Of a DNA stretch of 64,000 bases, positions 18,654 through 64,000 are shown piece after piece. The stretch is from an uncultured delta proteobacterium. GTDB lineage: Bacteria; Desulfobacterota; Binatia; Binatales; Binataceae. The translations under genes and the position numbers were made by a program. The stretch lies in contig CAVQAG010000013.1 of the NCBI GenBank assembly GCA_963710455.1, positions 149,290-213,289 on the forward strand. The letters are read 5' to 3'. Under the pieces are notes generated by a model. The model had not been told where the DNA came from, made no database searches, and was given only the letters and a program-made list of their open reading frames with translations. Every line of letters begins with the position of its first letter. Position 1 is the stretch's first letter.

Positions 18654-19070
18654 ATGTCCTGGCTTAAGAAGATTGCTTCTAAAATCAGCATGCATAGCGC
18701 CGAGCAGGCGGTAGAAGATGTCATGAACGCGGTCCCCACCGTGCAGTGCCTCACGGCAGAGCCGACCCCGGCCATCCCTGACGCTCAACAGAGCGAAAAA
18801 CCGGGACCGCGGCGCTACTTCATCAAAGCAGACATACTCAGCGGTGCAATCGCGCCTCCGAGTGCCAAGGCCGAACCAGTCTCGCCCGTTAAACCCGCCC
18901 AGGAGGACGAGAATTCGACGCATCAGCGCCGCTATTTTTCGAAAAACGGACAATGGATTGATAACGAAGAGGAGAGGGCGAACGCGGGAAAGATCGATAC
19001 CCAGGAGATAATCATCGACAAACGGCCGGTCGACCTGAAGACACTATTTCCCAAGCTGTCGCTCCGTTAG
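18654..19070 (+). CDS. hypothetical protein with internal RRYF(I/S)K repeat
   Basis: 138 aa. Strong RBS GAGGGAG upstream of the ATG. No recognisable domain. Preceded by a roughly 380-bp AT-rich spacer. Confidence 0.5.
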   Translation: MSWLKKIASKISMHSAEQAVEDVMNAVPTVQCLTAEPTPAIPDAQQSEKPGPRRYFIKADILSGAIAPPSAKAEPVSPVKPAQEDENSTHQRRYFSKNGQWIDNEEERANAGKIDTQEIIIDKRPVDLKTLFPKLSLR

Positions 19071-19210
19071 GCCGCTCCCGCAGGCGCTGGCCGCCCAAGC
19101 TGCGTGCCGCGCCCTTGACAGCCGGGGGCAAAATTACCAAACCAGATCGCAATACGATATCGTCGCCTTCGGACCGCGTGCTGCGGGCCGGGCAAGGAGG
19201 CCCTCTTACG

Positions 19211-20714: not shown

Positions 20715-20766
20715 ACTGGAGTGGCCGATAGCCAGCCTACTCCGATGCGGCCGTTTGAGACGTTTC

Positions 20767-21381: not shown

Positions 21382-21408
21382 TTGTCCTTCTCGGTTGTGT
21401 TCAGCAAA

Positions 21409-22722: not shown

Positions 22723-23421
22723 CTGCGCGTGGTTCTGTTAGACGCTTGCGTTCAACTGAAAAAAAAGGCCGCAGTGCTACCAAAGCATAAGCCATTGGCC
22801 GCACCATCTGGTATTCGCTCATTTCAAACGGTGGGGAATTATTGTCAATGGGTTCGAGCGCTATATGCAAAATTGGATGGAAAGAACAATCTTTCGCTCG
22901 TAGCAACAATATGTAGAGCAGCCGAATTCAGCTCATCACGCGTTTTAGCGAACTTTCAATCCATAATGCCTGGGAAACAAAGAGAGTCTGGAGCAGCAGA
23001 AGCCTGGTACACGCGCGACCCCAAGACGCGTACATAGAAAGGGACCTTTTGAGTGGCAGACGTTCGGCAGTCGGAGAAAATTTAAGTTGCCAAGAGAAAT
23101 CCGCGCGAAGATATCGTTCCAGACGCTCGCATTGATAGTGGGCCTGCGAGGTATTAACCGGTCGCTGCCCGCCTGAAATCGAATCTCATGCTCGTCACCT
23201 CGTCGGCTATCGAACTGCGAGGGCGACTATATTCCACGATTCAAGGCCCCATAAAAGAGCCACTTTACGCGAACATCGAGGGGCCACATTTCGCCGACGC
23301 AATTGCGAGAAATTGTGGCTTGCCCGCTGCTTCCGATGCGTCTTACAGTAGGCGGCACGCAATACCGCGCGCACGGAATCGCCATCGGAGCCGTAGCGCG
23401 TCCAAGAAAGTCGAGGCTGGA

Positions 23422-24585
23422 ATGAAAGTATCGCTCTTCTATCTGCCGTCGGTTGGCAACAAGGCCCAGGTCGAACAAGGGATGGTCGGGCTTCGCGGCG
23501 ACCTCTACGACCAGATGCTGCGCGAGGTTTCCGCGCAGGCCCGGTTGGCCGATGACCTCGGCTATGACTCGATAAGCTTCACCGAGCATCACTTCCACGC
23601 CGAGGGCTTCGAGCTATCCAACAACCCGGTGCTGCTCGACCTCTATATCGGGATGCAAACCAAGCGGCTGCGGGTTGGCCAACTCGGAATCGTGCTGCCG
23701 GCCAACAATCCGATTCGGGTGGCCGAGGATATCGCGATGCTCGACCACATGACCGGCGGACGCGCCAACGCCGGCTTCGCTCGCGGCTATCAGCGCCGAT
23801 GGGTCGATATCATGGCGCAGCAGACTCATGGCATCCACGGCGCCCAGCCGCATCAACACGACGAGATCGACGCCGCCAACCGCGCCGCGTTCGAGGAATG
23901 CTTCCGCATCATCAAGGCCGCGTGGACCGAGGACATGCTGAGCTACCAGGGCAAGTACTGGCGCGTGCCGCCGGGCGAGACGCCGTGGACGATCGAGGCC
24001 ACGACCAAGTGGGGCAGCGGCGTCGCGGATGGAATCGTCAAGGCGGTGAGCGTGGTGCCCAAACCCGTGCAGAAGCCGCATCCGCCGATCTTTCAGCCGT
24101 TCGCGTCGTCGGAACGCAGCATCCGATGGTGCGCGCAGGAGGGCGTCACCGCGGTAATTCCGCCGCTCTTCCCGGCCTTCGAGCGCCAGTTGTGCGACGT
24201 CTATGCCGAGGTCTCCGGCCGTGCGCCGGGCGAGGGGATGGGGGTGCTGCGCGACATCATTATCGCTGACACCGACGAGGAAGCGCACGCGATCTGGCAC
24301 GACAGCGGGTATTTCTGCGGCCGCGAATGGTTTCTGCCCTTCGGCTTCGCCAAAGGGCTGGAGGATCCGAAGACCGGCGAGGCGCCGGACCTGTTCGAGA
24401 ACGGGCTCGCGCTAGTTGGCACGGTCGACACCGTGACGCGGCAACTCGAAGGACTGATGAAGCGGTTGCCGGTCTCGTGGATTTTCGCCTGGATGTACAA
24501 CGGACTGATGGCGCACGATCGGCTGATGAAAACTATCGAGCTGTTCGCGACCAAGGTGCTGCCGCGAGTGGCGACCCCGGGTTAG
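23422..24585 (+). CDS. LLM-class (luciferase-like) flavin-dependent oxidoreductase
   Basis: MKVSLFYLP start at 23422. FTEHHF, GFARGYQRRW and the overall TIM-barrel LLM pattern. Paralogue of 28653-29885. Confidence 0.85.
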   Translation: MKVSLFYLPSVGNKAQVEQGMVGLRGDLYDQMLREVSAQARLADDLGYDSISFTEHHFHAEGFELSNNPVLLDLYIGMQTKRLRVGQLGIVLPANNPIRVAEDIAMLDHMTGGRANAGFARGYQRRWVDIMAQQTHGIHGAQPHQHDEIDAANRAAFEECFRIIKAAWTEDMLSYQGKYWRVPPGETPWTIEATTKWGSGVADGIVKAVSVVPKPVQKPHPPIFQPFASSERSIRWCAQEGVTAVIPPLFPAFERQLCDVYAEVSGRAPGEGMGVLRDIIIADTDEEAHAIWHDSGYFCGREWFLPFGFAKGLEDPKTGEAPDLFENGLALVGTVDTVTRQLEGLMKRLPVSWIFAWMYNGLMAHDRLMKTIELFATKVLPRVATPG

Positions 24586-24707
24586 GTTACATCCAAGCGC
24601 GCATAACCAGGTGAACTTCCCATAACCCAATATTGGCAAACTCGACATTCGCCAGCGCCAGTGCGAGAGTTGGGCCCGGAACGATCCAAGTTTCGCGAGA
24701 GGTAACG

Positions 24708-26345
24708 ATGGCAACTTCTGTACAGCTCACGCCGATGGCGCAGGCGGGGCCAGTCGAACGATTCGACGCGATCATAATCGGAGCCGGGATTTCCGGACTC
24801 TATCAACTCATTCGTCTGCGGGAACTCAACCTCACGGTGCGGGTCTATGAGACCGGCAGCGGAGTAGGTGGTACCTGGTACTGGAACCGCTATCCGGGCG
24901 CGCGTTTCGACTCTGAGAGTTATAGCTACGGCTACTCGTTTTCGAAGGAACTCCTGCAGGAGTGGGATTGGAAGGAGCATTTCTCCGGCCAGCCCGAGAA
25001 CGAGCGTTACCTCAACTACGTGGCAGATAAATTCGATCTCCGCCGCGACATCCGGTTCAACGCAACGGTCGAGTCAGCCGTTTACGATGACACGGAAAAT
25101 TGTTGGGAAGTCCGGCTCGACGACGGCGCTCGCGCCCGCGCGCGGCTCTTGATCACGGCGGTCGGGGTGCTTTCCGCGCAGAACATCCCCAGCTTTGCCG
25201 GAATCGAGAGTTTCAAGGGCGAGTCGTTTCATACGGCTCGATGGCCCAAGGAGCGCGTCGACTTTACCGGCAAGCGCGTTGGCGTGATTGGCACGGGCGC
25301 AACGGCGGTCCAGCTCATCACGGAAATCGCCAAAGAGGTTGGCCATCTGACGGTCTTCCAGCGCACCGCGAATTACTGTGCGCCGCTGCGCAACGGCCCG
25401 ATCGATCCCGAGACCCAGGCGAAAATCAAAGCGAGCTATCCGGAAATTTTCAAACGGACGCGCGAAACCTTCGCCAGCTTTATCCACGATTTCGATCCGC
25501 GCTCGGTCTTTGACGTGACTGCGGAAGAGCGGCAGGCGCGATTCGAGGAGCTGTGGTCGCAGCCGGGTTTTTCAAAATGGCTCGGCAATTTCCGCGATAT
25601 CATGAGCGATAGAAAGGCCAACGAATTGTTCGCGGAATTTGTCCGCAACAAAATCCGCGCCCGCGTGAAGGATCCGGTGATCGCGGAAAAGCTATGCCCG
25701 AAAGATCATCCGTTCGGGACCAAGCGGGTTCCTTTGGAGAGCGGCTACTACGAACAGTTCAATCGGCCCAATGTTCTGTTGGTCGATCTGCACGAGTCGC
25801 CAATCGAGCGCATCACGCCGAAGGGTATCAAGACCAGGAATGCCGAGTATGAACTCGACGTGATTATCTATGCGACAGGGTTCGATGCCGTCACCGGGCC
25901 GCTGACCAGAATTGATATCCGCGGCGAGGGCGGACTTTCGCTCAAGGACAAATGGGCCGACGGGCCGCGCACGTATCTTGGCATTCAGAGCGCCGGCTTC
26001 CCGAATCTTTTTACCCTGGTCGGACCTCACAATGGAGCTACCTTTTGCAACATACCCCGATGTATCGAGCAGAATGTGGAATGGGTAACCGATTGCATCC
26101 GCTACATGGGCGAGAAGGGTTATACGCGGATCGCGGCCAGTCCCGAAGCGGAGCAGGAGTGGACTGATCATGTCAACGAACTGGCCGTCGGCACACTGCT
26201 CTCCGAGGTCGACTCCTGGTTTTTCGGCGCCAATATACCCGGTAAGAAGCGCACCGTCCTGATGTACTTTGGCGGCGTCCCGGTCTATCGGAAGAAAGTT
26301 GATGATGTGGCGGCCAAGGGCTACGAGGGATTTGTGATGGAGTAG
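24708..26345 (+). CDS. Baeyer-Villiger monooxygenase (type I, FAD/NADPH; cyclohexanone-monooxygenase-like)
   Basis: GAGISG dinucleotide motif, GGTWYWNRYPGARFDSESY, BVMO fingerprint FKGESFHTARWP, and second Rossmann GTGATAVQ. ATG 24708 is preceded by GAGAGG. Confidence 0.9.
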   Translation: MATSVQLTPMAQAGPVERFDAIIIGAGISGLYQLIRLRELNLTVRVYETGSGVGGTWYWNRYPGARFDSESYSYGYSFSKELLQEWDWKEHFSGQPENERYLNYVADKFDLRRDIRFNATVESAVYDDTENCWEVRLDDGARARARLLITAVGVLSAQNIPSFAGIESFKGESFHTARWPKERVDFTGKRVGVIGTGATAVQLITEIAKEVGHLTVFQRTANYCAPLRNGPIDPETQAKIKASYPEIFKRTRETFASFIHDFDPRSVFDVTAEERQARFEELWSQPGFSKWLGNFRDIMSDRKANELFAEFVRNKIRARVKDPVIAEKLCPKDHPFGTKRVPLESGYYEQFNRPNVLLVDLHESPIERITPKGIKTRNAEYELDVIIYATGFDAVTGPLTRIDIRGEGGLSLKDKWADGPRTYLGIQSAGFPNLFTLVGPHNGATFCNIPRCIEQNVEWVTDCIRYMGEKGYTRIAASPEAEQEWTDHVNELAVGTLLSEVDSWFFGANIPGKKRTVLMYFGGVPVYRKKVDDVAAKGYEGFVME

Positions 26346-26621
26346 CGCCGCTTCATCATTGCAGCGCGCCTCTACGAAGCCTCCAAATATGTGCGCAGGC
26401 TGATGATACAGACGTTAGCGTAACGGCCGAGCTTCAAGCGATGGTACTTTAAGAGTTAGCCCCCAAAGTGGCTTCGGCAGTACGCACAAGGGAAGCTGTG
26501 TTCCCGCGACATTTGCCAGACTGGAGCTTTCGTGTTAGCGAAAGCCAAATGAATCGGTGGGCGCCACCAGGGCTCGCTTGGTGCGAGACGCGCGATGGAC
26601 GCCAATCGCAGGGAGGTCGTT

Positions 26622-27422
26622 ATGCCATACGCAGACAACAAGGGAGTCAAAGTCTATTACGAAACCTGGGGAAACGGCGGAGTGCCGATCGTGTTTCTCC
26701 ATCCATGGTCCACCAACGGCTATATCTGGTACTTCCAGATCTTTCATTTTGCACGGACCAACACCTGCGTCACGGTTGACCATCGCGGACACGGCCGCTC
26801 CGACAAGCCGGCCGGCGGCTATTCGATCCAGGAGCATGCGAGCGACGTCGCGGCGGTGATGGACGCGGCGAAGATCGACAAGGCGGTGGTCGTCGGCAAT
26901 TCGATCGGCGGGATGATCGCAATGCAATTCTGTCTCGCGCGTCCCGAGCGCGTGGTGGGCCTGGTGATCCAGAGCAGCGGCACAGCGCTCTCCGAGGGTT
27001 TGCCGAAGGAAGTGATGGAGGCGATGATTCGCGATCGCGACGCGACCTTCAACCAGCTCCTGGAGGGCACGGTGTCGGCGCGCAGCAAGCGCGAGCGCCC
27101 CGAAATTCTCGACCTGGCGCGCGCGAGCTTTATGCTCGAGTCGAACTGGCCGCGCCATGTCTTCGATTCGGCAATCAAGGATCCCAACGGCGTCTTCAAC
27201 TGGAACATCAAGAGTCGCCTGAAAGATATCAAGGGTCCGACCCTGGTGCTCGCGGGCGAGGAGGACCAGGCCACGCCGGTCGCCGCGAACAAGTTCCTCG
27301 CGGACAATATCCCGGGCGCCAAGTTGAACGTGCTCAAGGACATCGGCCACTTCTATCAACTCGAGCAGCCTGCGGCGTTCAACGCCACGCTGGATGAGTT
27401 TCTGAAATCAATCGCGCGCTAG
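26622..27422 (+). CDS. alpha/beta-fold hydrolase (esterase/lactonase-type)
   Basis: HPW oxyanion region, nucleophile elbow GNSIGG, and C-terminal GHF. GGGAGG sits 5 nt before ATG 26622. Confidence 0.85.
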   Translation: MPYADNKGVKVYYETWGNGGVPIVFLHPWSTNGYIWYFQIFHFARTNTCVTVDHRGHGRSDKPAGGYSIQEHASDVAAVMDAAKIDKAVVVGNSIGGMIAMQFCLARPERVVGLVIQSSGTALSEGLPKEVMEAMIRDRDATFNQLLEGTVSARSKRERPEILDLARASFMLESNWPRHVFDSAIKDPNGVFNWNIKSRLKDIKGPTLVLAGEEDQATPVAANKFLADNIPGAKLNVLKDIGHFYQLEQPAAFNATLDEFLKSIAR

Positions 27423-27456
27423 CCTTCGATGGCGCAGCGGAAGGACGGGGAACGAC

Positions 27457-28548
27457 ATGGGGATGGACTTCGGGATCTTCTACGAGATCGAGCTGCGGAA
27501 ACCTTACGGGCCGCGCGCCGAGTACGACGTTTTTCAGCAGGTCATCGCGCAGGTGGTCGAGGCCGAGCGTGCCGGCTTCACCAACTTCTGGTCGGTCGAG
27601 CATCACTTTCTCTCTGAATTCGCCTATAGCTCGGCACCCGAGGTGCTCTACGGCGCGCTCTCGCAGCGGACCAGCAAGATCCGGATCGGCCACGGCGTGC
27701 GCCTGCTGCCGTTTCCATACAACCATCCCATCCGGGTGGCCGAGATGGGCGCGACGGTCGACCTCCTGTCCAACGGACGGATGGAGTTCGGTACCGGGCG
27801 CTCTGTTAGCCGCGACGAGCTTGAGGGTTTCGGGATCAACCCGGCCGAGACGCGCGCGCTGTGGGAAGAGGCGCTGGATATCGTGGTTGGCGCGTGGACC
27901 AACGACGTCTTCTCGTGGGAGGGCAAGTATTTCAAGATTCCGCCGCGCGAAATAATTCCCAAGCCGCTCCAGAAGCCGCATCCGCCACTGTGGTGTGCCT
28001 CGACCGGTCCCGAGACCCACGAGATCGCGGGGCGCAAGGGAATCGGTCTATTGTCGTTCACGCTGCTGGTCGATCCTGAAGAGCTGAAGCGGCGGATCGG
28101 AATTTACCGCGCCGGACTCGCCGAGGCGAAGCCGGTCGGGAAGTTCATCAACGACCGTGCCGCGACCTTCACGATGGTGCATTGCGCGGAGACCAATAAG
28201 GAAGCGCGCGAAAACGCCAGGGCCGCTTTCGAATGGTACGCGCGTAAGGCTTTCGAGGCGGTCGCGTCGGTCGGCATGTGGCAGTCGGGCAAGACCGACA
28301 TCGGCGCCTACGCGTATCTCAAAGAGATGATGAAGATCGATCCGGCGACGATCAATTTCGACTACATGGATCAGAACGACATGATCATCTGCGGCGACCC
28401 CGACACCTGTATCAAGAAGGTCAAGCACTACCAGGCGGCGGGATGCCAGCAACTGCTGTGCTTCATGCAGATATACGACATCCCGCATCAGAAAATCATG
28501 GACTCGATCAAGCTCTGGGGTCAGCATGTAATTCCATATTTCAATTAG
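27457..28548 (+). CDS. LLM-class flavin-dependent oxidoreductase
   Basis: 363 aa. FWSVEHHF and GRMEFGTGRS are typical luciferase-like monooxygenase family segments. Confidence 0.85.
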   Translation: MGMDFGIFYEIELRKPYGPRAEYDVFQQVIAQVVEAERAGFTNFWSVEHHFLSEFAYSSAPEVLYGALSQRTSKIRIGHGVRLLPFPYNHPIRVAEMGATVDLLSNGRMEFGTGRSVSRDELEGFGINPAETRALWEEALDIVVGAWTNDVFSWEGKYFKIPPREIIPKPLQKPHPPLWCASTGPETHEIAGRKGIGLLSFTLLVDPEELKRRIGIYRAGLAEAKPVGKFINDRAATFTMVHCAETNKEARENARAAFEWYARKAFEAVASVGMWQSGKTDIGAYAYLKEMMKIDPATINFDYMDQNDMIICGDPDTCIKKVKHYQAAGCQQLLCFMQIYDIPHQKIMDSIKLWGQHVIPYFN

Positions 28549-28652
28549 AATTGCCCGCCACATGCGGCGCTTGCGATCGCCCGGCGGAGCGCTAGGATGG
28601 CCTTATTCGCAGCAAAATAGCCTGACACGCGGTCAGGCGAGGGGAGTCGAGC

Positions 28653-29885
28653 ATGAGATTCGGACTTCTGATGCTACCCACGGTTCCCGGCACGCTGGAG
28701 GAGCGCGAGCGGCTGCGCCCGATCGCCGCGCACAACGATCGCTGGCAGATGATGCTCAAGCAGATCGTGGAATTCGCCCGCATGGCCGAGGATCTGGGGG
28801 TCGAGATGGTCGCCTTCCCCGAGCATCACCTGCACACCGAAGGGCTCGAGGTTGGCAGCGTTCCGCAACTGCATCTGTACGTCGCGATGAACACCAGCCA
28901 TCTGCGGGTCGGGCCCATCGGCTACGTGCTCCCGGGATGGAACCCGCTCAGGTTGGCGATCGAGATCGGGTGGCTCGACCAGTTCACGAAGGGGCGCACC
29001 TTCGTCGGCTTCGCGCGCGGCTACCAGCATCGATGGCTCAACCAGATGGGGCAGAAGCTGCACGTCTCGGCGACCACCTCCGACCAGTCCGAGATCGACA
29101 AGACCAACCGCAAGGTATTCGAGGAAGTCTTCCAGATTCTCAAGCTGGCATGGGGCGACGAGCCCTTCTCGTACAAGGGCGAATACTACGAATATCCGTA
29201 TCCGTACGAGACCGGCACCCCATGGCCGCCGCATAAATGGACCGAACAATACGGCGCGCCGGGCGAAGTCGTGGACGGCAACGTCAGGAAGATTTTCATT
29301 GTACCCAAGCCTTATCAGCGACCACATCCGCCGCTGTTCCAGGCATTCTCAGTCAGCGACGAGACGATAGTCTGGTGCGCCAAGCAGGGCATCATCCCGA
29401 TGACCCTTATTACGCATCCCGACGCGATGGCGCGGGTGGCGAAGCTGTTCCAGGACGAATCGGCCAAGGCCGGGCGCAAGCTCGAGTTGGGCCAGCGTAT
29501 CGGCGTGCTACGGCAGATCTACTTCGGGCAGAACAAGGAAGAGACGTATCGGCTGGCCGAGATGGGCACCGCCGGCGTGGGGTTCGGCAAATTCTGGGGC
29601 CACTTCGGATTCTTCGAGGCGTTCCGGCTGCCGGGCGACGAGGAGAAATGGCCGCGCGGCAAGGCGTTGGTGCCGCAGAGCGAATGGACCATCGATCGGA
29701 TGGACAAGGCGCACTACCTGTTCATGGGATCGGAGTCCGATGTGCGGCGCAAGATGGACGCCCTGGTCGAAGCGGCCAATCCGGAATATTTCTGCTGGAA
29801 CTTCGATCAGGGGATGATTCCGATGGACGTGATGAAGGATCAATTGCGCACGTTCGGCGAGAAGATCATGCCGCACTACAGATAG
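28653..29885 (+). CDS. LLM-class flavin-dependent oxidoreductase
   Basis: 410 aa. FPEHHLH and GFARGYQHRW. Clear paralogue of 23422-24585. Confidence 0.85.
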   Translation: MRFGLLMLPTVPGTLEERERLRPIAAHNDRWQMMLKQIVEFARMAEDLGVEMVAFPEHHLHTEGLEVGSVPQLHLYVAMNTSHLRVGPIGYVLPGWNPLRLAIEIGWLDQFTKGRTFVGFARGYQHRWLNQMGQKLHVSATTSDQSEIDKTNRKVFEEVFQILKLAWGDEPFSYKGEYYEYPYPYETGTPWPPHKWTEQYGAPGEVVDGNVRKIFIVPKPYQRPHPPLFQAFSVSDETIVWCAKQGIIPMTLITHPDAMARVAKLFQDESAKAGRKLELGQRIGVLRQIYFGQNKEETYRLAEMGTAGVGFGKFWGHFGFFEAFRLPGDEEKWPRGKALVPQSEWTIDRMDKAHYLFMGSESDVRRKMDALVEAANPEYFCWNFDQGMIPMDVMKDQLRTFGEKIMPHYR

Positions 29886-35356: not shown

Positions 35357-35547
35357 GGCGAGGCGAGCCTAGTATGCGGATCGCCCATTACGCAATTGGC
35401 GGCCGAGCGGAATTGGCGACTGGAGAGTCATTTGTAACAAAGCGCGGAGATCGGAAAATCAGGGCAGCGATCTGAGAAAAAAGACTTAAAAATCGCCCCT
35501 CCAACCGACCACCACTTCCACTGTCAGGGGCACACCACTTGCTTGGC

Positions 35548-37101
35548 ATGTCTCCCTTTGTGGATTTTACCAGCTTTCCTGTCAGTGGCCGGTCCGCGAA
35601 GCTTTCAGCGTATATCTTCTTGCTCGGAATCCTTCTATTAGCTGGATGTGGTAGCGGAGGCGGTGGGGGCGGCTCCGGAACGCCGACACCAAGCCCCACT
35701 GCGACCGGATTGGCGCGCGTCAATCACATCGTCGTGATGATGCAGGAAAATCATTCCTTCGATAATTACCTGGGAGCGCTGCCCTACGCGCCGGGATCGC
35801 CATACCATCCGGGTCCCTGCTCCTCTAGCGATCACACCTGCGTCAACGGTTTGAGCTGCACCGCGGGTACGGGGGGAATGCTCACCTGTACCAACTCAAA
35901 TCCCGAGAACGATGGTGCCCCGCCGGTGATGGCGTTTCACGATCCTCGCCTCTGCATCGCGCCCGATCTAGATCATAGCTGGGTTGGAACTCATAACGAG
36001 ATCAACTTTAACGATCCCAACAACAGTCTTAATGGGACCAACGATGGCTTCGTCGAGCAAAATGATTTGACCGAACAAATCGATAGCGGCGAAACATCCA
36101 CTGACGACGATACGATGGGCTTTTATACGCAGGCGGACCTGCCGTATTACTATGGCCTGGCTACGACCTTCGCAGTTGACGACAGTTACTACTCGTCGGT
36201 TCCCGCTCACACGGTGCCCAACCGGTTATACGAGTTCGCAGCTACCTCATTCGGTCACTTGGTCACTAGCATCAACGAGATACCGCTTCCGCCTAGCGGC
36301 GGCTTCCAACCGATCAATGGAACGATTTTTGATCTTCTGGATAAGAACGACGTAACCTGGGGCGAGTATGTGGACGTCAGTGGTGTAACCGAACTAGGCA
36401 TTCCCTATGGAGGCCTGGTACACAATCCGGTGCCGCCGCATTTTCAAACTCTCGACGATTTCATGTCCCAGGCATCCTCGGGCAATTTACCTTCGGTGTC
36501 GTTCGTGGATTTCAGCATACAGGACAGCGAACATCCCCCATACGACATCAGGGCCGGAGAGGCGTTGGTGGCGAGCGTAATCAACGCGGTTCGCAGCGGA
36601 CCGAACTGGAAGGACTCGATCGTCATCTGGACCTACGACGAGCATGGCGGCTTCTACGACCACGTCACCCCGCCCTCGGCGATCTCACCCGACGGCATTC
36701 CGCCAGGAAAATGCGCGGACCGCTCCAACCCTCCCACGTCCGAAATTCCCGGTAACGGTGCACAATGCTCGGACAGCGCGCAGGCGGAGCAGATGCTTTG
36801 CGCGGAGGTTTTGCCCGGCGAGGCCTGCATCAATAGCTTCGATCAATATGGCATCCGGGTGCCTTTTGTGGTTATCTCGCCATTCTCGCGACCGGCTTAC
36901 GTCTCTCATACGGTTGGCGATCACACTTCGATTCTGGCGCTTATCGAGAAACGATTCACGGCCAATGAGCATCTGACCGCGCGCGACGCGAACGCGAACG
37001 ATCTCGAAGATCTTTTCGATTTCACCAATGCGCCTTCGATGAACGCAAACGTGTCGCCAAGCCTCGCACCGGCCCCGCAACCGTCAGATCCGGGTTGCTG
37101 A
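35548..37101 (+). CDS. phosphoesterase-family lipoprotein (phospholipase C / AcpA acid phosphatase family)
   Basis: Lipobox LLLAGCGS followed by a Gly-rich linker. NHIVVMMQENHSFDNYLG and YDEHGGFYDHV are hallmark motifs of the PLC/AcpA phosphoesterase family. Confidence 0.85.
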   Translation: MSPFVDFTSFPVSGRSAKLSAYIFLLGILLLAGCGSGGGGGGSGTPTPSPTATGLARVNHIVVMMQENHSFDNYLGALPYAPGSPYHPGPCSSSDHTCVNGLSCTAGTGGMLTCTNSNPENDGAPPVMAFHDPRLCIAPDLDHSWVGTHNEINFNDPNNSLNGTNDGFVEQNDLTEQIDSGETSTDDDTMGFYTQADLPYYYGLATTFAVDDSYYSSVPAHTVPNRLYEFAATSFGHLVTSINEIPLPPSGGFQPINGTIFDLLDKNDVTWGEYVDVSGVTELGIPYGGLVHNPVPPHFQTLDDFMSQASSGNLPSVSFVDFSIQDSEHPPYDIRAGEALVASVINAVRSGPNWKDSIVIWTYDEHGGFYDHVTPPSAISPDGIPPGKCADRSNPPTSEIPGNGAQCSDSAQAEQMLCAEVLPGEACINSFDQYGIRVPFVVISPFSRPAYVSHTVGDHTSILALIEKRFTANEHLTARDANANDLEDLFDFTNAPSMNANVSPSLAPAPQPSDPGC

Positions 37102-56101: not shown

Positions 56102-57034
56102 TTGGCAACAAGAATCTTCTGCAAGGCGCGGGCCGAAGGGACGCCGGCCGGCGCCAGTGCAGAAAATGGTGCGGCGGCCTTACTGAAGCTGCCCGAGGTC
56201 CGCGCGGTGGTGGCGATTGCCAGCGCCAGGGGCGGAGTCGGGAAGAGCGCGATCGGCGTCAACGTTGCGGCGGCGCTCGCGATCGCGGGCCGAAAGGTCG
56301 CAATCGTCGACGCTGACCTGAATGCGCCCGGTCTGCTAGGGATGCTGGGATTGAAACCCCTGCGGCGTTTTACGTTGGGCGAGGAGATCGATCCCGCCTC
56401 GGGTCCGTTGGGCCTTCGGGTTGCGGCTTCGAGCCAATTGGCCGACGGCGAACCGGTCGCGTTCAGTTTTGCCGAATCCGATGACATCCGACCAGCGGCT
56501 CCGGCGCTCAATGGCGCGCGGCCGCTAGAGATCGACTACGGCGCCACGTTGCGTCGCCTGATGGGTGCGCGCTTTGGCCCGCTGGACCTGATGCTTATCG
56601 ATCTTGCCTCGGGTGTATCGCAGTTGCACGGCCTCGCCGAAGTGATTGAGCTTACCGGCGTAGTGATGGTGACGCGTCCGTCCGAGGCCTGCGTGCGTGC
56701 GACTCGTGACGCGCTGAAAATTGTCGCCCACGACGGTATCGCGGTGCTCGGACTGGTCGAAAACATGCTCGGCTTCAACTGCGACAGTTGTCACTCCGTG
56801 CGCCCGCTCTTTCCGCAGGGTGATTTTGGTGGCCTGGCGCAATCAGCCGAAGCGCCGATTCTCGGGCGGCTTCCGTTCGATCCGCGGCTCGCGGATTGTG
56901 CCGAGCGCGGTGCCCTGTTCGTACGCGAGTATCCCGACGCCCCCCTGGCCAAACAATTTGCGGCGATCGCGGCGAACCTCGACCAGCAAATCGCACGGCA
57001 TGCGCCCGCGCCGGTGACCGACGCTCCCGCCTGA
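56102..57034 (+). CDS. Mrp/NBP35/ApbC-family P-loop ATPase
   Basis: Deviant Walker A SARGGVGKS, VDADLNAPG, and CDSCH motif. TTG start, so the N-terminal boundary is uncertain. Confidence 0.8.
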   Translation: MATRIFCKARAEGTPAGASAENGAAALLKLPEVRAVVAIASARGGVGKSAIGVNVAAALAIAGRKVAIVDADLNAPGLLGMLGLKPLRRFTLGEEIDPASGPLGLRVAASSQLADGEPVAFSFAESDDIRPAAPALNGARPLEIDYGATLRRLMGARFGPLDLMLIDLASGVSQLHGLAEVIELTGVVMVTRPSEACVRATRDALKIVAHDGIAVLGLVENMLGFNCDSCHSVRPLFPQGDFGGLAQSAEAPILGRLPFDPRLADCAERGALFVREYPDAPLAKQFAAIAANLDQQIARHAPAPVTDAPA

Positions 57035-57045
57035 GCACGTCTCCC

Positions 57046-57075
57046 GTCATCCTGAACGAAGCGAGTCCGCGAGCG
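57046..57075. repeat. solo half-copy of the GTCATCCTGAACGAAG repeat
   Basis: GTCATCCTGAACGAAGCGAG matches 45021-45040 at 19 of 20 positions. It lies 12 nt after the mrp stop. No inverted partner was seen nearby. Confidence 0.5.
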
Positions 57076-57089
57076 GAATCTACCTAAAA

Positions 57090-58943
57090 CTAGCTCTCGC
57101 CGTTGTCTGCGTCGGCGGTTTCGGCGAGCGCGCGCGGGGCCTGAGCGCTGCGGTACGAGCACTCGAACATGCCCGCGCCGCGAAGCTCTGCGCCATGATC
57201 GCCGATACCGAATCGGGCGAAGCCGAGCGAGGTTAGAATTCGGCTTTGTGCTGGCCCGGGCCGCGAGAGCATCACGAAGCTCAGCACTTCGCCGTCGATA
57301 GCAAGCCCATAGCTGTCCTCGGGCGAGCGCAGTAGCGCGCTGATTCGACGCGGCGGCCGCCTGGGAGCTGCGGACGTTAGTTTCAGCCGCTCGAGGTTTG
57401 CGTCAGTCCATCGTTCACGATCGAGAACGCGTGCGCTCGTCCTTGCAGCGCCCGTATCGTCGGTAAGCGTTCGCGCCTCGACGGCCCGCGGTGAGGATTC
57501 ATCGGGAAAGGCAGCCCAGATCATTCGCCGTTCGTTGAAGGCGCCGGTGCCGATTCCGACGAACGAGCGCCCGAGGCGCCCCACGGCCTCAACGCGATGC
57601 GTCGCGCCGGCTAGCGAACAGTGGCCGGTGATGCGGCCATAAATGCCGTCGCCGTGCTCCGGACGACCAATCCATTCCACCAGCATTTCCGTTCGCGGTT
57701 GTGCGGACGCGCCGCCGGCGGGCCAGACCTCGAACTCCACGTGAAGCTCCATCGCCTCCTGCAGCGAGGCCTTTGCGAGCGCGTGTTCGACGCTCAGATA
57801 CGCGGTGCCGTCTTCGACCACGACCGCCGGCCCGGCAAAATCAAAGCGCAACCGGCCGTCCTGCATTTGCAACGCCAGTGGTCCGAGGGTCAGGCTGTGT
57901 GCCGAGCGTGCCACCCGACCCTCGGCCGTGAAGAGCGCGATTCGCTCGCGGCCCGCGACCGCCATCACGCGCGCGCCTGCCGCGCCGGCGCCGAGATCAA
58001 AGCTTGCCATCGCGCCTATCTGGGTCGACGCATCGTAAAACTCGACTCCGACTCGCAGTGGTCCCCTCAACGGCTCCTGAACAGCGCGCCGGGGTGCAGG
58101 CGAAGGGACCTCGACCGTGCGGATGATCTCGATACGCCTGAGGCGATCGGCCCGACTCGCGCGCGAACTGGCGGCCGCAAGATCGCATCGCGCGAACGAC
58201 TCGGCGATTGCGGCGATAGTCTCGGTACGGAATCGGCCGGGCATTCGCAGCGCCACCGAAAGCTCCAGCTGGACGGCTTCCAGCGCCCCGCGCGCGTTGA
58301 GCGCGGCCAAGCGCCTTAGCGCGCCGACCGGGCTCGCGGCGTGCCGCCGGGTGAACGCCTGCAGCAGATTGTTGGCGCCGGCGCCCGGGTAGCGCAGGCC
58401 GAAGGTGGGTTCGATTTCGCTGCGGTGAAGCGCTTGTACGAAATCGAGCAACGGCCCGTTGACAAATGCGTCGCTGGCGGAAACGTGCGCACCGCATGCC
58501 GGCAACAGAGTCCCGTTGGTCGACTTGACGCCGATACCCACGTCGACGCGCGGCTCGATAACGTTCCATCCGTGGATCAACAAAACCACCGCGCGTCCGC
58601 TGCGCTCCACGATTCGCTCCAGCCGCGTCGCGATAAGCTCGAGCAGCCATGGCGCCTCGCTCATTACCTGGCTCAGGCGGTTGAGGTCGAGCCGGTTGCG
58701 ATCCATCCCGGCGTTGATGATTGCGCCTGCGCCGAGGCGATGCGCCAGCTCCCGCGTGATATCCGCGGTATGCAAATCGTTGACCTTGGGATGGAGCATC
58801 GCGCGCGTCGCCGGGCCGGCATGGCCGCCGTGAGGCGCAATCAGCAGCACCGGAGCTTCGCCGTCGGGCGTCTGAAGCCATCGCGCGGCTTTTGCGGCGA
58901 TGGTCTCGTCAATGAGATGCGAGTCTGCTGTCGACTTTGCCAT
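57090..58943 (-). CDS. two-domain protein: N-formylglutamate-amidohydrolase/PghP-like N-domain plus uncharacterised C-terminal region
   Basis: ATG at 58943 overlaps the pcs stop (TGATG). N-domain motifs LLIAPHGGH, MDRNRLDLNR and VVLLIHGW resemble the FGase/PghP zinc-hydrolase superfamily. No match recognised for the roughly 350-aa C-terminal part. The 5' 705 nt of ORF-track entry 57090-59648 were discarded. Confidence 0.55.
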   Translation of the reverse strand: MAKSTADSHLIDETIAAKAARWLQTPDGEAPVLLIAPHGGHAGPATRAMLHPKVNDLHTADITRELAHRLGAGAIINAGMDRNRLDLNRLSQVMSEAPWLLELIATRLERIVERSGRAVVLLIHGWNVIEPRVDVGIGVKSTNGTLLPACGAHVSASDAFVNGPLLDFVQALHRSEIEPTFGLRYPGAGANNLLQAFTRRHAASPVGALRRLAALNARGALEAVQLELSVALRMPGRFRTETIAAIAESFARCDLAAASSRASRADRLRRIEIIRTVEVPSPAPRRAVQEPLRGPLRVGVEFYDASTQIGAMASFDLGAGAAGARVMAVAGRERIALFTAEGRVARSAHSLTLGPLALQMQDGRLRFDFAGPAVVVEDGTAYLSVEHALAKASLQEAMELHVEFEVWPAGGASAQPRTEMLVEWIGRPEHGDGIYGRITGHCSLAGATHRVEAVGRLGRSFVGIGTGAFNERRMIWAAFPDESSPRAVEARTLTDDTGAARTSARVLDRERWTDANLERLKLTSAAPRRPPRRISALLRSPEDSYGLAIDGEVLSFVMLSRPGPAQSRILTSLGFARFGIGDHGAELRGAGMFECSYRSAQAPRALAETADADNGES

Positions 58944-59545
58944 CACGCTCCGCGGCGATAGCGCCTGAGCCTCATCGCCGCGCGTGCGTGGAGGATGAAC
59001 GAGGCAATTAGATAGTACGCGATGAACGCGAGGGAAGCGGAGAGCAGTACCGGATGCGACGCCGGGAGCTCCGCCAGCAACCCCAGCGTGATTATACCCC
59101 ACGCGATCGCGAGCGTGAGGGTTACCGCGCGCAGCGGCCCGGTGCGATTTGGATAGATGTACTTGATCGGCACGAACACCATCACGGCAAAAACCGCGAC
59201 GATTACTGTGCCGGTAAGCGCTCCGAATTGGAGACAATAGAGGTAAAATGCGACCAGATTCCAGTACGACGGAAAGCCGCGGAAGTAGTGATCGTCGGTC
59301 TTGGCCTCGACATGGCAAAATCCGTAACCGCTCGCCACCATCACCAGGCCGCCGACCAGATAGCCGATAAGCCCGGGCTCGAGGATTCCCGCGCGCAGCA
59401 TCAGGAAGACCGGCGCGAGCACGTAGGTCAGGTAATCGACGATGTTGTCGAGCAGGGCGCCGTCGAAGTGGGGGATGCGCCGGCGCACTTCGAGCAGGCG
59501 GGCGAGGGGGCCGTCGCTGGAGTCGATCGCGGTCGCGGCCGCCAT
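58943..59545 (-). CDS. pcs: phosphatidylcholine synthase (CDP-alcohol phosphatidyltransferase family); true start probably upstream of 59545
   Basis: DGPLAR...FDGALLDNIVDYLTYVLAPVF and KTDDHYFRGFPSYWNLVAFYLY closely parallel rhizobial Pcs as recalled. A conserved N-terminal helix (CAWGVHLYTALGAVAGLV) is encoded in frame upstream of the first ATG. Confidence 0.8.
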   Translation of the reverse strand: MAAATAIDSSDGPLARLLEVRRRIPHFDGALLDNIVDYLTYVLAPVFLMLRAGILEPGLIGYLVGGLVMVASGYGFCHVEAKTDDHYFRGFPSYWNLVAFYLYCLQFGALTGTVIVAVFAVMVFVPIKYIYPNRTGPLRAVTLTLAIAWGIITLGLLAELPASHPVLLSASLAFIAYYLIASFILHARAAMRLRRYRRGA

Positions 59546-59708
59546 CGCGATGAAGCTCGCGCGAAAATCGCCCCGCGCGGCGTAATCGATGGAAACCAGC
59601 CCGGCGACCGCGCCGAGCGCCGTGTACAGATGTACGCCCCAGGCGCAAAGCCGCAGCCAGTGCTCGCGCGCTAGCGCTTCGGCGTCGCGATCCGCCCGCG
59701 CGGCCGGC

Positions 59709-60242
59709 TCACTTGCCGGGCTTGTGATCGCGCGGTCCGAAGTAGTCCTCCAAAATCGTCATGAACGGGCCGCAGGTGCGGCGCGACTTGACGTGTGCGC
59801 AAGCCTCGTCGAGCGACATCTCGCCGTGCGCGCGCAGATATGCGATCGCAAGCGTCGGCGCCCGGTTAAGCCCGGCGTTGCAGTGCAGGTAAACGCGCTC
59901 ACCGGCGCTGATAAGGGTCGCCAGCGCACCGAGCGTGTCGGCGAGCCGCTCGGCCATCGCGTCTGCGCTGCCGTCCTGGATCTGCGTGCGGACGAATTTG
60001 ACTCCACTTGCGCGACAGGCCTCGGCAAGCTCACGCTCGCGCAATCCATGGAGCGCGAGATCCTCATCGTCCTGAAGATTGTGAATCGCAGTTACGCCGA
60101 ATTCCGATTTGAGCCACGCAATATCGTCGGGCCGGGGAAATTCGCCAACCAGGAGTCCGGGAGAAATCTCGGTCACCGAGGGACGGCCCTTGAGGCGCGT
60201 CGCGTTGGTCTGATGCTCGGGTCGTTTGCTGAACCAATCCAT
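59709..60242 (-). CDS. dual-specificity (Cys-based) phosphatase-fold protein
   Basis: Active-site loop VYLHCNAGLNRAPT (HCxxGxxR) and upstream Asp-containing loop. 177 aa. Confidence 0.8.
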   Translation of the reverse strand: MDWFSKRPEHQTNATRLKGRPSVTEISPGLLVGEFPRPDDIAWLKSEFGVTAIHNLQDDEDLALHGLRERELAEACRASGVKFVRTQIQDGSADAMAERLADTLGALATLISAGERVYLHCNAGLNRAPTLAIAYLRAHGEMSLDEACAHVKSRRTCGPFMTILEDYFGPRDHKPGK

Positions 60243-60382
60243 CGGTTGTGAGTGTCGGGTTGAGCCGGCGTGCCGGGCCGTACCGCGATCATAATTTTAG
60301 CCTATGAACCCGTGGCTTCTATAGCGGAAAATCGCGATCCTCCACAGGCGGGCGGCAGCGCACATCGGCGCGCGCTGCTCAA

Positions 60383-63300
60383 TCAACCCTTGGCGCGGCG
60401 GCCGCTGCGGGCGGAAGCGCGGCGCGGCCGATTTGCGGCGCGCGGCTCATCGGCCGCGTTTCCTGCCGGCTCTGCTGTTTCTTCCCGTATCGGCGCCGCG
60501 CCGCCGTCATCGCCGTGCACGTCCTGTTTGCGCTTGGGGCGTCTGGCCGCGCTGGACGCGGGCATCCGCTCGCCCAGTGCCAGCACCGCCGCGCGCATCG
60601 CGTCGGCGAGTTTGCGATAGGCGCCGGTACCCTCGGCATTGTCGGCGAGTGAGCGCAACTCTGCGTTGGTAATTATGCGGCCAATCCGGACTTCAACCGG
60701 ATGGCGATGCGGGATTATGCTGCCCTTGCCGAGGACCTCGTAAGTGCCGCTGATCCGCACCGGCAGCACGTCGCATCCGCCGCGCAGCGCAAGGTACCCG
60801 GCGCCGCTTTTGAACTCGTGAATCGCGCCGTCGGGTGAGCGGGTGCCCTCGGGGAACATCAGGACGCTACGCCCGGCATTGAGCTCGTCGATTGCGTCGT
60901 CGAGCGAGTCGAGCTGTGCGCGCTCACGGTCGAACGGAATCAGCCGGGTGAAGTTGCTGACCACGAAGCGGCGGGCGTTGGTGTTGAAGAAATAATCCTT
61001 GGCGGCGAGTACCACCAGCTCGCGGCCCGGCGCACCGAGCGCATAACTCGCGAGTGCGAAGTCGAGATGACTCGCGTGATTGGCGACCACCAGGAAGTTG
61101 CGGTTGGCAGGCACATTGCCGCGGCCCAGCACGCGTGGCTGCAGCCATCCGTCAAACGCGATGCGCTGCGCGCCGCGAAACGCCGCTTCGCCCAGGCGCT
61201 TGAGCGCGCCCGGCAAGGCCGGCGTGAACGGCTCGGCGAAGCGCGCGTACGACGGCAGGCGCGGGCGGTTCTGTCCCTGGCCTACAGCGCGCTGCAGATC
61301 GTCGACTGTGCGGAGGTCGCCCAGCTCCGCGGGAGTCAGCTCGCGCTCGGCGTGAGCCGCTATATGCTCGGCCAGCTCGGCCATCGCGAGCGAGTCAAGC
61401 CCGAGGTCTTCGATGAGGCGAGTCGCGGGCGTGATGCTCTCGATACCGCTCGAGACTTGCGCGAGCGCCTGGGCGAGCCACGGCTCGACTTCGGAGCTGA
61501 TCGCCGCGCGCTCCTGCGCGTGGGTTTCGAGCATCTGCTCGAGAGTCTTTACGACCTCTAGGCGGATGACCTTGCGCGTCCGAGTGCGCGGAAGCTCGGA
61601 GTCGATGAAGCGCAGGATGCGAACGCGTTTGTGCGGGCTCAGGCCGGCGCCGATTTTTTCGAAATGAGTGCGCAGGTTGTCTTCCACCGCGCGGCGGCTT
61701 TCGCCGCGCGCATAGGCCGGCACCACCAGTGCGGCGGCCTGCTCGCCCTGGGCGACCTTGAGGCCGACGATCGCAAGTTCCTTGATGAACGAGGAGTGTC
61801 CGTAAACTTCCTCGAGTTCGTCGATATAAATATTGTTGCCGCCGGAATCGACGATCACATCCTTGGCGCGGCCGACGATATAGAGCCGGCCGTCTTCGTC
61901 GAGGCGGCCAAGGTCTCCGGTGCAGAGCCATCCGTCGTGCAGCACTTCGTCGGTGGCGGCTTTGTTGTGGTAGTAACCCGCCATCACGTTCGGTCCGCGC
62001 GCGAGGATCTCGCCCACCGTGCCGTTGCCGCTTGAGTGCAACTTGATCTCGACCCCGTTAAGCGGCTTGCCGACTGATCCCGCTGCGAGCGGTTCGTCCG
62101 GGCGCGCGACGCACAGCACCGGCGCCGCCTCGGTCAGTCCGTAACCTTCGAGCAGCTTTATCCCGATGTCGTTGAAGAAGCTGGCGACGCGCTGCGGCAG
62201 CGCAGCGCCGCCGCTTACCGCAAGCCGCAGCCGCCCGCCAAGCGCGGTATGGGCCTGGCGAAAGAGCAGGGCGCCGGCGTTGAGACCCCACTCGCTATCG
62301 AACCTGCGATTCAGATCGCGCAGGCGATCGAACAGTGCGTGGAGGAACGGACCTTGCGCCTCAACGCCGTCGACGATGCGGCGATGCACGGCCTCCCACA
62401 ATGCCGGGACGCCGACCACCGCGGTCGGCCGCACGTCGGCGAGTGTCCGTGCAAGACTCGCGGCGTCCACTCCGAGCGGATAGACCACCGTCGCGCCGAG
62501 CGCGAGCGGCAACAACATCCCGCAGGTGAACTCGAAGGTATGATGGAGCGGGAGCAGCGAAAGCACCACATCCGAGGAATCGAGGGTAAAAACCCGCGCG
62601 AGCATCGCGACTTCGGCAGCGAAATTCCCGTGGGTCAACATCACGCCTTTAGGCGCGCCGGTGGTGCCCGAGGTGAACACGATCGAGGCGAGCGTCTTGC
62701 GCTCGGTGGCGTGCCGCGCGTCGGGCCGTCCCTTGAGCACGAATGGACGGCTGAGCTCGGCGAACCCGAGCTCGACGATCTCGCTGTTGAGCTTGCCCAG
62801 CGCGCCGACCAGGCGCTTGGCGACCGCCTCCGAACATAGCGCCGCGGTCGGCGTGGCGATGCGGCAGATGGGCGCCAGCTCGTCGGGCGAAATCAGATGG
62901 TCCAGCGGCACAGCGACGGCACCGGCGGCGAGGATCGAAAAATATGCGAGCACCCACTCGGGCGAGTTCTCGCCGATAAGCAGCACGCGATCGCCTACCT
63001 TGACCCCGCGCATTCCGAGCAGCAGACCGGCGCGATGCGCACTGTCGCGCAGCTCGCGAAAGGTGGTTGTGATGCGCTCGCCCGAGGGCTGGCGCGCAAC
63101 CAGCGCGGGCCGCGAACCATAGCGCTCGGCGGCGCGGTCCAGCATTTCAGCCAGCGTGCGATGGCGCGCCGGAGCGCTAGGGCGGCCGCGCGTATGCAGA
63201 TCGAGCGAGCCGAAAATGTGCCGGCGCAGTCCCGGCAGATGCACTTTTATCCAGTAGTCCGCCCAATCGATACGCTCGGGCGCATAGGGATGGCGTTCCG

Positions 63301-64000
63301 CGTCCGCGGGAGTGAGGGATTTATAGAGCGCGCGGATATTGGTGCCGTGGAAAGTATAGACCAGCTCCTGGATATACGGGCGATAGACTTCGACCAGCTC
63401 GCGCGCCATCGCCGTGTTGGCGCCGAACTTGTCGACGCTCTGAGCGAACTTCTTCGCGCGCTCGGAGTCTTCGCCGAGCAGCGTGCGAGCGGCGCCGGCG
63501 CCCTTGCTCAGCAACTCGGGCAGGGTTTGGCTCGCGAGCTCGTACGTGTTCTGCGAGACGACGACCGCTTCCAGGTGCGGTGCGAAGCGGCCCATCGGAC
63601 CGCCCACGCGGCGATGCTCGCGGCGATTGCTGAGCCCGGTCAGTTCGACCAGCCGGCGCATCGGCAGCGGGTTCACGTCCGAGGTGCAGAGCTGGTAGAC
63701 GGGCTTGTGACGCCCGGCGAGCAGCGCCGCGAGAATCGGGATCATCGCGTGCGCCGCAAGATCGACCGGTATAACGTCGAGCACCAGCTCGCCCTTGGCC
63801 GGATAAAAGCGATAGCCGCGGCCGGAAAGATAGGTCAGCGGCGCGCTGGTGTTGACGCCCTGGTTCCATCCCGGGAACGGATCGGAAAGCGCGCTTTCGA
63901 TGATTGAGGGGCGCGCCACCGTGGCGGCGATCGAGTCTTGCGCCGCGAAGACCAGTTGCTCGCCGAGGCTCTTGCTATAGCTGTAAGTGTTGGGCCAACC
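60383..64000 (-). CDS. multidomain lipid enzyme: fatty-acyl reductase (NAD_binding_4-like, partial) / AMP-forming acyl ligase / phosphopantetheine carrier / PlsC-type acyltransferase (5' end outside window)
   Basis: Frame is open to the window edge (GWPNTYSYSKSLGEQLVF...ARPSIIESALSDPFPGWNQG). Ligase motifs TSGTTGAPKGVMLTHGN and GDLGRLDEDGRLYIVGRAKD. Carrier EDLGLDSLAMAEL. Acyltransferase NHASHLD and FPEGTRS. Confidence 0.8.
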   Translation of the reverse strand, partial: GWPNTYSYSKSLGEQLVFAAQDSIAATVARPSIIESALSDPFPGWNQGVNTSAPLTYLSGRGYRFYPAKGELVLDVIPVDLAAHAMIPILAALLAGRHKPVYQLCTSDVNPLPMRRLVELTGLSNRREHRRVGGPMGRFAPHLEAVVVSQNTYELASQTLPELLSKGAGAARTLLGEDSERAKKFAQSVDKFGANTAMARELVEVYRPYIQELVYTFHGTNIRALYKSLTPADAERHPYAPERIDWADYWIKVHLPGLRRHIFGSLDLHTRGRPSAPARHRTLAEMLDRAAERYGSRPALVARQPSGERITTTFRELRDSAHRAGLLLGMRGVKVGDRVLLIGENSPEWVLAYFSILAAGAVAVPLDHLISPDELAPICRIATPTAALCSEAVAKRLVGALGKLNSEIVELGFAELSRPFVLKGRPDARHATERKTLASIVFTSGTTGAPKGVMLTHGNFAAEVAMLARVFTLDSSDVVLSLLPLHHTFEFTCGMLLPLALGATVVYPLGVDAASLARTLADVRPTAVVGVPALWEAVHRRIVDGVEAQGPFLHALFDRLRDLNRRFDSEWGLNAGALLFRQAHTALGGRLRLAVSGGAALPQRVASFFNDIGIKLLEGYGLTEAAPVLCVARPDEPLAAGSVGKPLNGVEIKLHSSGNGTVGEILARGPNVMAGYYHNKAATDEVLHDGWLCTGDLGRLDEDGRLYIVGRAKDVIVDSGGNNIYIDELEEVYGHSSFIKELAIVGLKVAQGEQAAALVVPAYARGESRRAVEDNLRTHFEKIGAGLSPHKRVRILRFIDSELPRTRTRKVIRLEVVKTLEQMLETHAQERAAISSEVEPWLAQALAQVSSGIESITPATRLIEDLGLDSLAMAELAEHIAAHAERELTPAELGDLRTVDDLQRAVGQGQNRPRLPSYARFAEPFTPALPGALKRLGEAAFRGAQRIAFDGWLQPRVLGRGNVPANRNFLVVANHASHLDFALASYALGAPGRELVVLAAKDYFFNTNARRFVVSNFTRLIPFDRERAQLDSLDDAIDELNAGRSVLMFPEGTRSPDGAIHEFKSGAGYLALRGGCDVLPVRISGTYEVLGKGSIIPHRHPVEVRIGRIITNAELRSLADNAEGTGAYRKLADAMRAAVLALGERMPASSAARRPKRKQDVHGDDGGAAPIREETAEPAGNAADEPRAANRPRRASARSGRRAKG

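Follow-up and report, generated by a model that had tools for sequence, protein, structure and literature searches.

Which pathway is served by a single reading frame that joins a fatty-acyl reductase, an acyl-AMP ligase, an acyl carrier and a PlsC-type acyltransferase? This question is raised by a stretch of 64,000 nucleotides from an uncultured member of the Binataceae (class Binatia; assembly GCA_963710455.1, contig CAVQAG010000013.1, positions 149,290 to 213,289), here called the window, in which such a frame runs along the minus strand between 60383 and the window edge at 64000. An initial annotation had likened its product to ElbD, an enzyme of myxobacterial ether-lipid biosynthesis. The evidence presented here indicates that the window protein is probably an ElbD orthologue, the Binatia form of a multifunctional enzyme that acts in the AGPS-independent (elb) ether-lipid pathway. 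The enzyme kind itself is already known; Binatia as the host and the modified gene cluster are new here.

Translation of the window from base 64000 gave 1205 sense codons followed by a stop at 60383-60385, in keeping with the single minus-strand frame of more than 1,200 codons, from the window edge to 60383, that had been described initially. The remaining two minus-strand frames from the same base closed after 54 and 7 codons. A run of 1205 codons without a stop would arise by chance with a probability of about 5e-16 at 62.3% G+C, and the G+C content at third codon positions (GC3) of the frame, 0.80, is similar to that of the adjacent genes. The long open frame was confirmed as a genuine gene for most of a four-domain ElbD-family enzyme, the parts of which are as follows (residue numbers are those of the window fragment; adding 267 gives the full-length numbering; FAR, fatty-acyl reductase):

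60383..64000, minus strand: ElbD-family multifunctional enzyme, C-terminal 1205 codons plus stop (open frame, orthologue alignment, four-domain Pfam set)
63743..64000, minus strand: distal fatty-acyl reductase (NAD_binding_4), catalytic YxxxK as YSYSK at residues 6-10 (Pfam PF07993)
63212..63406, minus strand: candidate FAR C-terminal "Sterile" region (PF03015, under the gathering score)
61571..63142, minus strand: fatty-acid adenylating ligase (AMP-binding and AMP-binding_C) with motifs A3, A5, A7, A8 and A10 (PF00501, PF13193)
61295..61480, minus strand: acyl carrier domain, phosphopantetheine serine Ser870 in LGLDSL (PF00550)
60749..61135, minus strand: PlsC/AGPAT-type acyltransferase with NHASHLD, FPEGTRS and VLPV (PF01553)
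60386..60610, minus strand: basic low-complexity C-terminal tail ending RRAKG (composition, orthologue comparison)

The families PF07993, PF00501, PF00550 and PF01553 were all recovered by Pfam, in that order, and each of the parts recognized initially (distal reductase, complete AMP-forming ligase, carrier with its LGLDS serine, PlsC/AGPAT domain and basic disordered tail) was upheld. The NAD_binding_4 match spans residues 1-86 and profile positions 172-258 of 258 (E 2e-12), and therefore just the last third of the reductase domain lies in the window. The ligase comprises an AMP-binding match (residues 287-677, E 2e-81) and an AMP-binding_C match (residues 728-810), and in NCBIfam and the PDB it is matched best by long-chain fatty-acid ligases (PRK06187, FadD5 8r2q and ttLC-FACS 1ult). 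The PP-binding match of the carrier (residues 841-902) scored 26.8 bits against a cut-off of 20.8. For the acyltransferase (residues 956-1084, E 4e-25), the sole solved relative is the T. maritima PlsC 5KYM (E 3e-18). The catalytic motifs of all four domains are intact in the fragment: YSYSK (position 6) in the reductase; TSGTTGAPKG (443), GYGLTE (619), WLCTGD (691), GRAKD (710) and PRTRTRK (804) in the ligase; LGLDSL (866) in the carrier; and NHASHLD (974) and FPEGTR (1049) in the acyltransferase. In an alignment of 22 diverse family members the carrier serine is invariant, and YxxxK, A3/A5/A7/A8/A10, DS(L), HX4D and FPEGTR are invariant or almost so. The C-terminal 75 residues are Ala/Arg-rich with a net charge of +7, and Binatia orthologues retain the terminal (R/K)RAK(G/A) at identities as low as about 70%; distant family members lack it. 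No convincing transmembrane segment was found in the fragment, the hydrophobic peaks of which lie inside globular domains.

The N-terminus had been placed outside the window, and comparison with relatives agreed. Since residue 1 of the fragment aligns with residue 268 of orthologues of 1473-1474 amino acids (aa), at 94% identity, the gene would extend about 800 bases past the window and encode about 1472 residues in all, with its start codon expected near 64,801. Orthologues at 90-94% identity, from Candidatus Binataceae, are 1471-1474 aa long, which likewise puts about 267 residues beyond base 64000. One of these, P0005 (1471 aa, 90% identity), has the same four-domain Pfam set as the window fragment, and the orthologue P0441 carries the Rossmann motif GATGFLG at residue 32.

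In Myxococcus xanthus, ElbD (MXAN_1528, UniProt Q1DC43) belongs to the elbB-elbE cluster of Lorenzen et al. 2014 (as cited in PMC9131029), and its published domain order is N-terminal FAR1-like, ACS, acyl carrier protein (ACP) and AGPAT-like acyltransferase (PMC9131029). The neighbors of elbD are elbB (HAD), elbC (function unknown) and elbE (NAD-dependent epimerase/dehydratase); in M. xanthus, levels of alkyl and vinyl ether lipids fall strongly when elbD is disrupted, ElbE contributes to ether-lipid formation there, and elbD and elbE are sometimes unlinked to elbB and elbC in myxobacteria (PMC9131029). The FAR-ligase-ACP-AGPAT order of the window protein is the order published for Myxococcus ElbD, a correspondence that the initial annotation had left unverified, and the two proteins are also alike in length, at about 1450-1480 aa. 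By tblastn, window residues 1 to about 1140 were collinear, at 39% identity and E = 0, with the large genes of the elb-type loci L009 (Polyangia by nearest named relatives) and L012 (Pyrinomonadaceae), and every domain of the window protein aligned with its counterpart in both. A protein search seeded with the L009 homologue returned only Polyangia-type relatives. Identity to the non-Binatia ElbD genes examined was 38-42%. A difference from ElbD is the lineage-specific basic tail of the Binatia protein. The shared domain order (PMC9131029) and the collinear identity of about 39% to elb-cluster ElbD genes both bear out the ElbD-like interpretation offered at the outset.

The gene neighborhood points the same way. 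In eight loci from a scan of one genome per species, Myxococcota and Acidobacteriota loci among them, HAD and LarA-family genes lie upstream of the large gene, directly so in seven (in L012 the HAD gene is about 2.4 kb further upstream), and an NAD-epimerase gene directly follows the large gene in L009, L011, L012 and L014. The HAD-LarA-like-ElbD-epimerase order of these loci matches the published elbB-elbC-elbD-elbE layout. The corresponding genes of the Binatia locus lie beyond base 64000 and are known from relatives, in four of four of which (93%, 90%, 71% and 70% identity) a TetR gene, a HAD-IB hydrolase gene and a gene for a 546-547-aa LarA-family protein stand immediately upstream. Three of the four share the downstream synteny of the window (ParA/Mrp-like, DksA, MiaB-like, LolA and FtsK). 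These relatives thus resemble the elbB-elbE cluster in having a HAD gene and an elbC-position gene directly upstream. The assignment to ElbD is supported because the domain order, the collinear homology to elb-cluster genes and the HAD-LarA-like genes upstream in Binatia relatives agree; the domains, their order, the intact motifs, the collinear homology and the conserved synteny are direct observations.

The elbC-position LarA-family gene, outside the window, was located in four loci at the following coordinates:

L001, 8371-10011
L009, 8371-9996
L012, 7481-9079
L085, 6317-7957

In the relatives, this gene matches the NCBIfam equivalog "NPN-dependent hydroxyacid isomerase, LarAH14/15/16 family" with 835 bits against a cut-off of 740, and the closest solved structures of its product are the LarA-like nickel-pincer enzymes 9Q2U and 9Q3J, with a single catalytic histidine. 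Aligned across nine elb-type loci, the protein keeps LHR(R/K), GG(H/Y)KS and HH(N/E/D)P (143 of the alignment's 546 columns are invariant) and retains the catalytic His, the cofactor-binding Lys and the nickel-binding His. It belonged to the LarAH14/15/16 family in each elb-type locus where it was found, and across phyla it is more conserved than ElbD (51-58% versus 38-42% identity). According to one paper on LarA, a LarA homologue is carried by 80-100% of Myxococcota. In the literature searched, we found no link of ElbC to lactate racemase or the nickel-pincer cofactor, nor of such a gene to ether lipids.

The best 120 database relatives of the window protein share 68-93% identity with it, and the named ones come from Candidatus Binataceae, Binatus or Binatales; almost all are 1430-1490 aa long, with the same Pfam set and a complete N-terminal reductase. 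Within the three nearest clusters at 90%, the highest identity to the fragment is 97%, over a partial alignment. An exhaustive HMMER search across 1.84 billion representatives returned one Binatia cluster at 70% identity, followed by a fall to at most 45% for about 60 more full-length four-domain clusters, counted at 50% identity, beyond which lie many proteins of about 870-900 aa without the reductase. The same domain order was verified with Pfam in three distant representatives. Among the matches listed from a scan of one genome per species, full-length homologues occur in Myxococcota (Bradymonadaceae, Polyangiaceae and "Myxococcales"), in Acidobacteriota, including Pyrinomonadaceae, and in Planctomycetota; neither Myxococcus nor Binatia appears among these listed matches. 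ElbD homologues were previously reported from Myxococcota, Acidobacteriota, Poribacteria, Latescibacterota, Planctomycetota and others, four-domain homologues are known from many phyla, and an elb cluster has been reported in subdivision-4 Acidobacteria. The literature searched contained no mention of Binatia or Binatota as ElbD hosts and no Binatia lipid data. Three distant four-domain homologues (P0124, P0125 and P0143) are lengthened at the C-terminus by about 140-170 aa (motif ...DCVLKT...); an SCP2 domain was considered as the identity of this extension and dropped because Pfam gave no match there. In another representative, P0215 (3462 aa), related ligase modules occur inside a much larger synthetase.

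Downstream of the ElbD-like gene, three further minus-strand genes follow:

59709..60242, minus strand: dual-specificity-type phosphatase (Cys-X5-Arg, HCNAGLNR), 140 nt downstream of the ElbD-like gene (Pfam DSPc, E 4e-15)
58943..59656, minus strand: phosphatidylcholine synthase (Pcs)-like CDP-alcohol phosphatidyltransferase (NCBIfam Pcs models, motif)
57090..58943, minus strand: conserved 617-aa protein, start overlapping the Pcs stop as TGATG (overlap, homologues, AlphaFold model)

In these three genes, in the TetR gene upstream and in having no adjacent elbE or elbA, the Binatia locus differs from the elb cluster. The position of the phosphatase is conserved in L001, L084 and L085. Among solved proteins, its product comes closest to two glucan phosphatases of plants, LSF2 and SEX4, rather than to protein phosphatases, a kinship that suggests a non-protein phosphate ester, possibly a lipid, as its substrate; the match to the phosphatidylglycerophosphate phosphatase PTPMT1 was weak (E 0.007). 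The Pcs-like translation contains the DxxDGxxAR...GxxxDxxxD motif, and a 245-aa CDP-OH_P_transf gene occupies the same position in L085. The first ATG of the Pcs-like gene is at 59545, with no ATG, GTG or TTG upstream of it; the stretch of 40 residues upstream of this ATG (REHWLRLCAWGVHLYTALGAV...) recurs, conserved, in L001 and L084, and without it the N-terminus of the Pcs models would go unmatched. A GTG stands in this conserved region in one relative and the window offers CTG or ATC only, so that the gene may start non-canonically. CDP-alcohol phosphatidyltransferases are also carried by elb-like clusters of sponge symbionts.

The 617-aa protein is translationally coupled to Pcs through the TGATG overlap. 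It has about 600 homologues, and those with a source name are all from Binataceae or Binatus; P0297 in the collection is 100% identical. No family assignment emerged for it; it shows a weak FGase-like N-terminal alpha/beta domain, and DUF7064 was found in some homologues. In the AlphaFold model (pLDDT 80.6), the C-terminal half resembles the two-barrel folds of AttH, kievitone hydratase, Fsa2 and 25-phosphosteroid lyase (E 2e-8 to 2e-6; target-normalized TM-score about 0.42-0.51). The fold matches include fungal decalin-forming pericyclases, and all of them act on hydrophobic substrates. In the region 56900-60500 neither a sigma-70-like promoter nor an intrinsic terminator was found, and no terminator-like site separates the four minus-strand genes; such missing signals neither prove nor exclude co-transcription. 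In L086 (71% ElbD identity), a zinc-dependent phospholipase C gene (12365-13273) follows the ElbD-like gene and replaces the phosphatase-Pcs pair; its product is again an enzyme of phosphocholine lipids. A PF04185 phosphoesterase (phospholipase C/acid phosphatase family) is also encoded in the window, at 35539-37101. Judged from the Pcs-like gene in the window and the phospholipase C gene in L086, the genes downstream of the ElbD-like gene appear to concern phospholipid head groups.

Several points weigh against the assignment to ElbD and the elb pathway. Similarity was measured only against elb-cluster genes of Myxococcota other than M. xanthus and of Acidobacteriota, and what is said of the first 267 residues and of the genes upstream derives from relatives rather than from the window. 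The Sterile match (residues 199-263) scored 29.8 bits, under the gathering score of 35.4; a weak Sterile match was also seen in homologues. A tblastn search for homologues of four ElbE proteins came back empty for both the 64-kb window and the 24-kb locus L001, and the gene adjoining ElbD downstream is the DSPc phosphatase, not elbE; an ElbE gene may lie at another place in the genome. The Pcs-like protein is matched best by five NCBIfam Pcs models (E 3e-58 to 5e-40; 197 to 138 bits), all under their cut-offs of 300-440. Isolates of Pontiella carry elbD homologues, and ether lipids are not detectable in them. Moreover, because no ElbD has been reconstituted in vitro, any assignment of steps to domains is predictive.

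Other functions were weighed. The enzyme might make fatty alcohols, wax-type products or ordinary acyl-glycerolipids, or return free fatty acids to phospholipid in the manner of Aas, with no role in forming an ether bond. FAR domains alone give fatty alcohols, a ligase joined to a PlsC-type domain follows the logic of E. coli Aas, models of which are among the NCBIfam matches, and the window encodes neither ElbE nor an AGPS-type protein (Pfam scans of 50 open reading frames across the window revealed no AGPS-type or FAD-linked oxidase protein); the Pontiella isolates would fit this alternative as well. However, the Aas equivalogs fall far under their cut-offs, as the contrast with Aas in the initial annotation had led one to expect, with 210.9 bits against 1221 for PRK08633 and 182.6 bits against 1349 for PRK06814. 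Both proteins join an AMP-forming fatty-acid ligase to a PlsC-type acyltransferase, but in Aas the acyltransferase precedes the ligase, the ACP is a free protein and a reductase is lacking, whereas here the ligase comes before the acyltransferase and the polypeptide includes its own carrier and reductase; Aas was accordingly rejected as the identity of the protein. The strictly conserved HAD and LarA-like partners, common to clusters that match the genetically validated elb layout, also speak against a function confined to such products, and we regard it as unlikely.

The FARAT fusions (FAR-GNPAT) were likewise rejected as an identity. Like FARAT and the MXAN_1675-type fusions, the window protein has an N-terminal FAR and a C-terminal glycerolipid acyltransferase in one polypeptide (PMC13012113, PMC9131029), and the two would share a role in supplying ether-lipid precursors, which FARAT fills in the AGPS-dependent plasmalogen pathway. 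In contrast to FARAT, which has neither ligase nor carrier and works with a separate AGPS, the window protein holds a complete AMP-binding ligase and a PP-binding domain between FAR and acyltransferase, and no AGPS-type gene is found in the window.

Alternatively, the protein could be a specialized-metabolite enzyme resembling a nonribosomal peptide synthetase (NRPS), one that makes a lipid natural product rather than bulk membrane lipid. An adenylation domain, a phosphopantetheine carrier and an NAD_binding_4 reductase acting on a tethered acyl group are also the parts of carboxylic acid reductases and NRPS-like adenylation-carrier-reductase (A-T-R) enzymes, genome-mining tools class elb clusters as biosynthetic gene clusters, and a TetR regulator gene lies upstream in the relatives. 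In those enzymes, however, the reductase is a C-terminal thioester reductase and there is no acyltransferase, whereas the reductase of the window protein is N-terminal and FAR-like, with a Sterile-type extension. The gene is, moreover, near-universal among the sampled Binatia relatives, sits among housekeeping genes in conserved synteny and has putative enzymes of phospholipid head groups as neighbors, all of which makes a specialized metabolite improbable. A chimeric assembly, or a gene in decay, might be suspected behind the long frame because the closest database relative, P0001, is shortened to 1302 aa on a contig with several fragmented genes; both are very improbable given an uninterrupted frame, intact motifs, native GC3 and the same protein of 1440-1480 aa on dozens of independent contigs.

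From the domain content of this probable ElbD orthologue we infer a chemistry of activation, loading, reduction and acylation. The ligase domain would adenylate a free long-chain fatty acid and load the acyl thioester onto the enzyme's own phosphopantetheinylated carrier domain; the N-terminal FAR-type domain would reduce carrier-bound acyl to fatty aldehyde or alcohol with NAD(P)H, and the PlsC-type domain would move carrier-bound acyl to a glycerol-phosphate-type acceptor. The ElbB-like HAD phosphatase and the ElbC-like LarA-family protein may then help to convert the products to a 1-O-alkyl glycerolipid, from which the adjacent Pcs-like enzyme in Binatia may yield ether-linked phosphatidylcholine. 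Each chemical step in this scheme, together with the acceptor, the chain length, the ether-bond-forming step and the choline head group, is a prediction.

The presence of a hidden-redox enzyme beside ElbD suggests, speculatively, an AGPS-free route to the ether bond. We considered the possibility that the elb pathway forms this bond with the nickel-pincer (LarA-family) enzyme, with the choline head group coming from Pcs and the 617-aa protein serving as an accessory. Under such a scheme, the LarA-type enzyme would transiently oxidize C2 of acyl-glycerol-phosphate by hydride shuttling, which would let the fatty alcohol made by ElbD replace the acyl group, and would then re-reduce C2; this redox-neutral step would stand in for AGPS and a reductase, and the 617-aa protein, with its two-barrel fold of hydratase/lyase type, would be an accessory peculiar to the lineage. 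Each of these steps is speculative, and the proposal as a whole is tentative and rather doubtful.

Elsewhere in the window, a tRNA-Arg(ACG) gene (13230-13306) precedes about 10 kb in which the G+C content is lower (55-60% versus 62-67% on the flanks), up to about 23000. This stretch (13230-23000) contains short open reading frames, several without Pfam matches, and may be an integrated element. Immediately beyond it, at 23188-29885, three luciferase-like monooxygenases, a flavin (Baeyer-Villiger type) monooxygenase and an alpha/beta hydrolase are encoded in a run suggestive of the oxidative breakdown of hydrocarbons or ketones and not linked to the ElbD-like gene.

Bacterial ether lipids serve as environmental and palaeoclimate markers, and their producers are poorly known; Binatia are an abundant uncultured lineage of soil. 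The locus described here adds Binatia to the candidate ether-lipid producers, by way of a near-universal and well-conserved cluster. The gene set TetR-HAD-LarA-like-ElbD-phosphatase-Pcs-617-aa protein is compact enough for heterologous reconstitution. The conserved LarA-family partner and the putative enzyme for the choline head group offer testable leads on ether-bond formation and on the nature of the final lipid.

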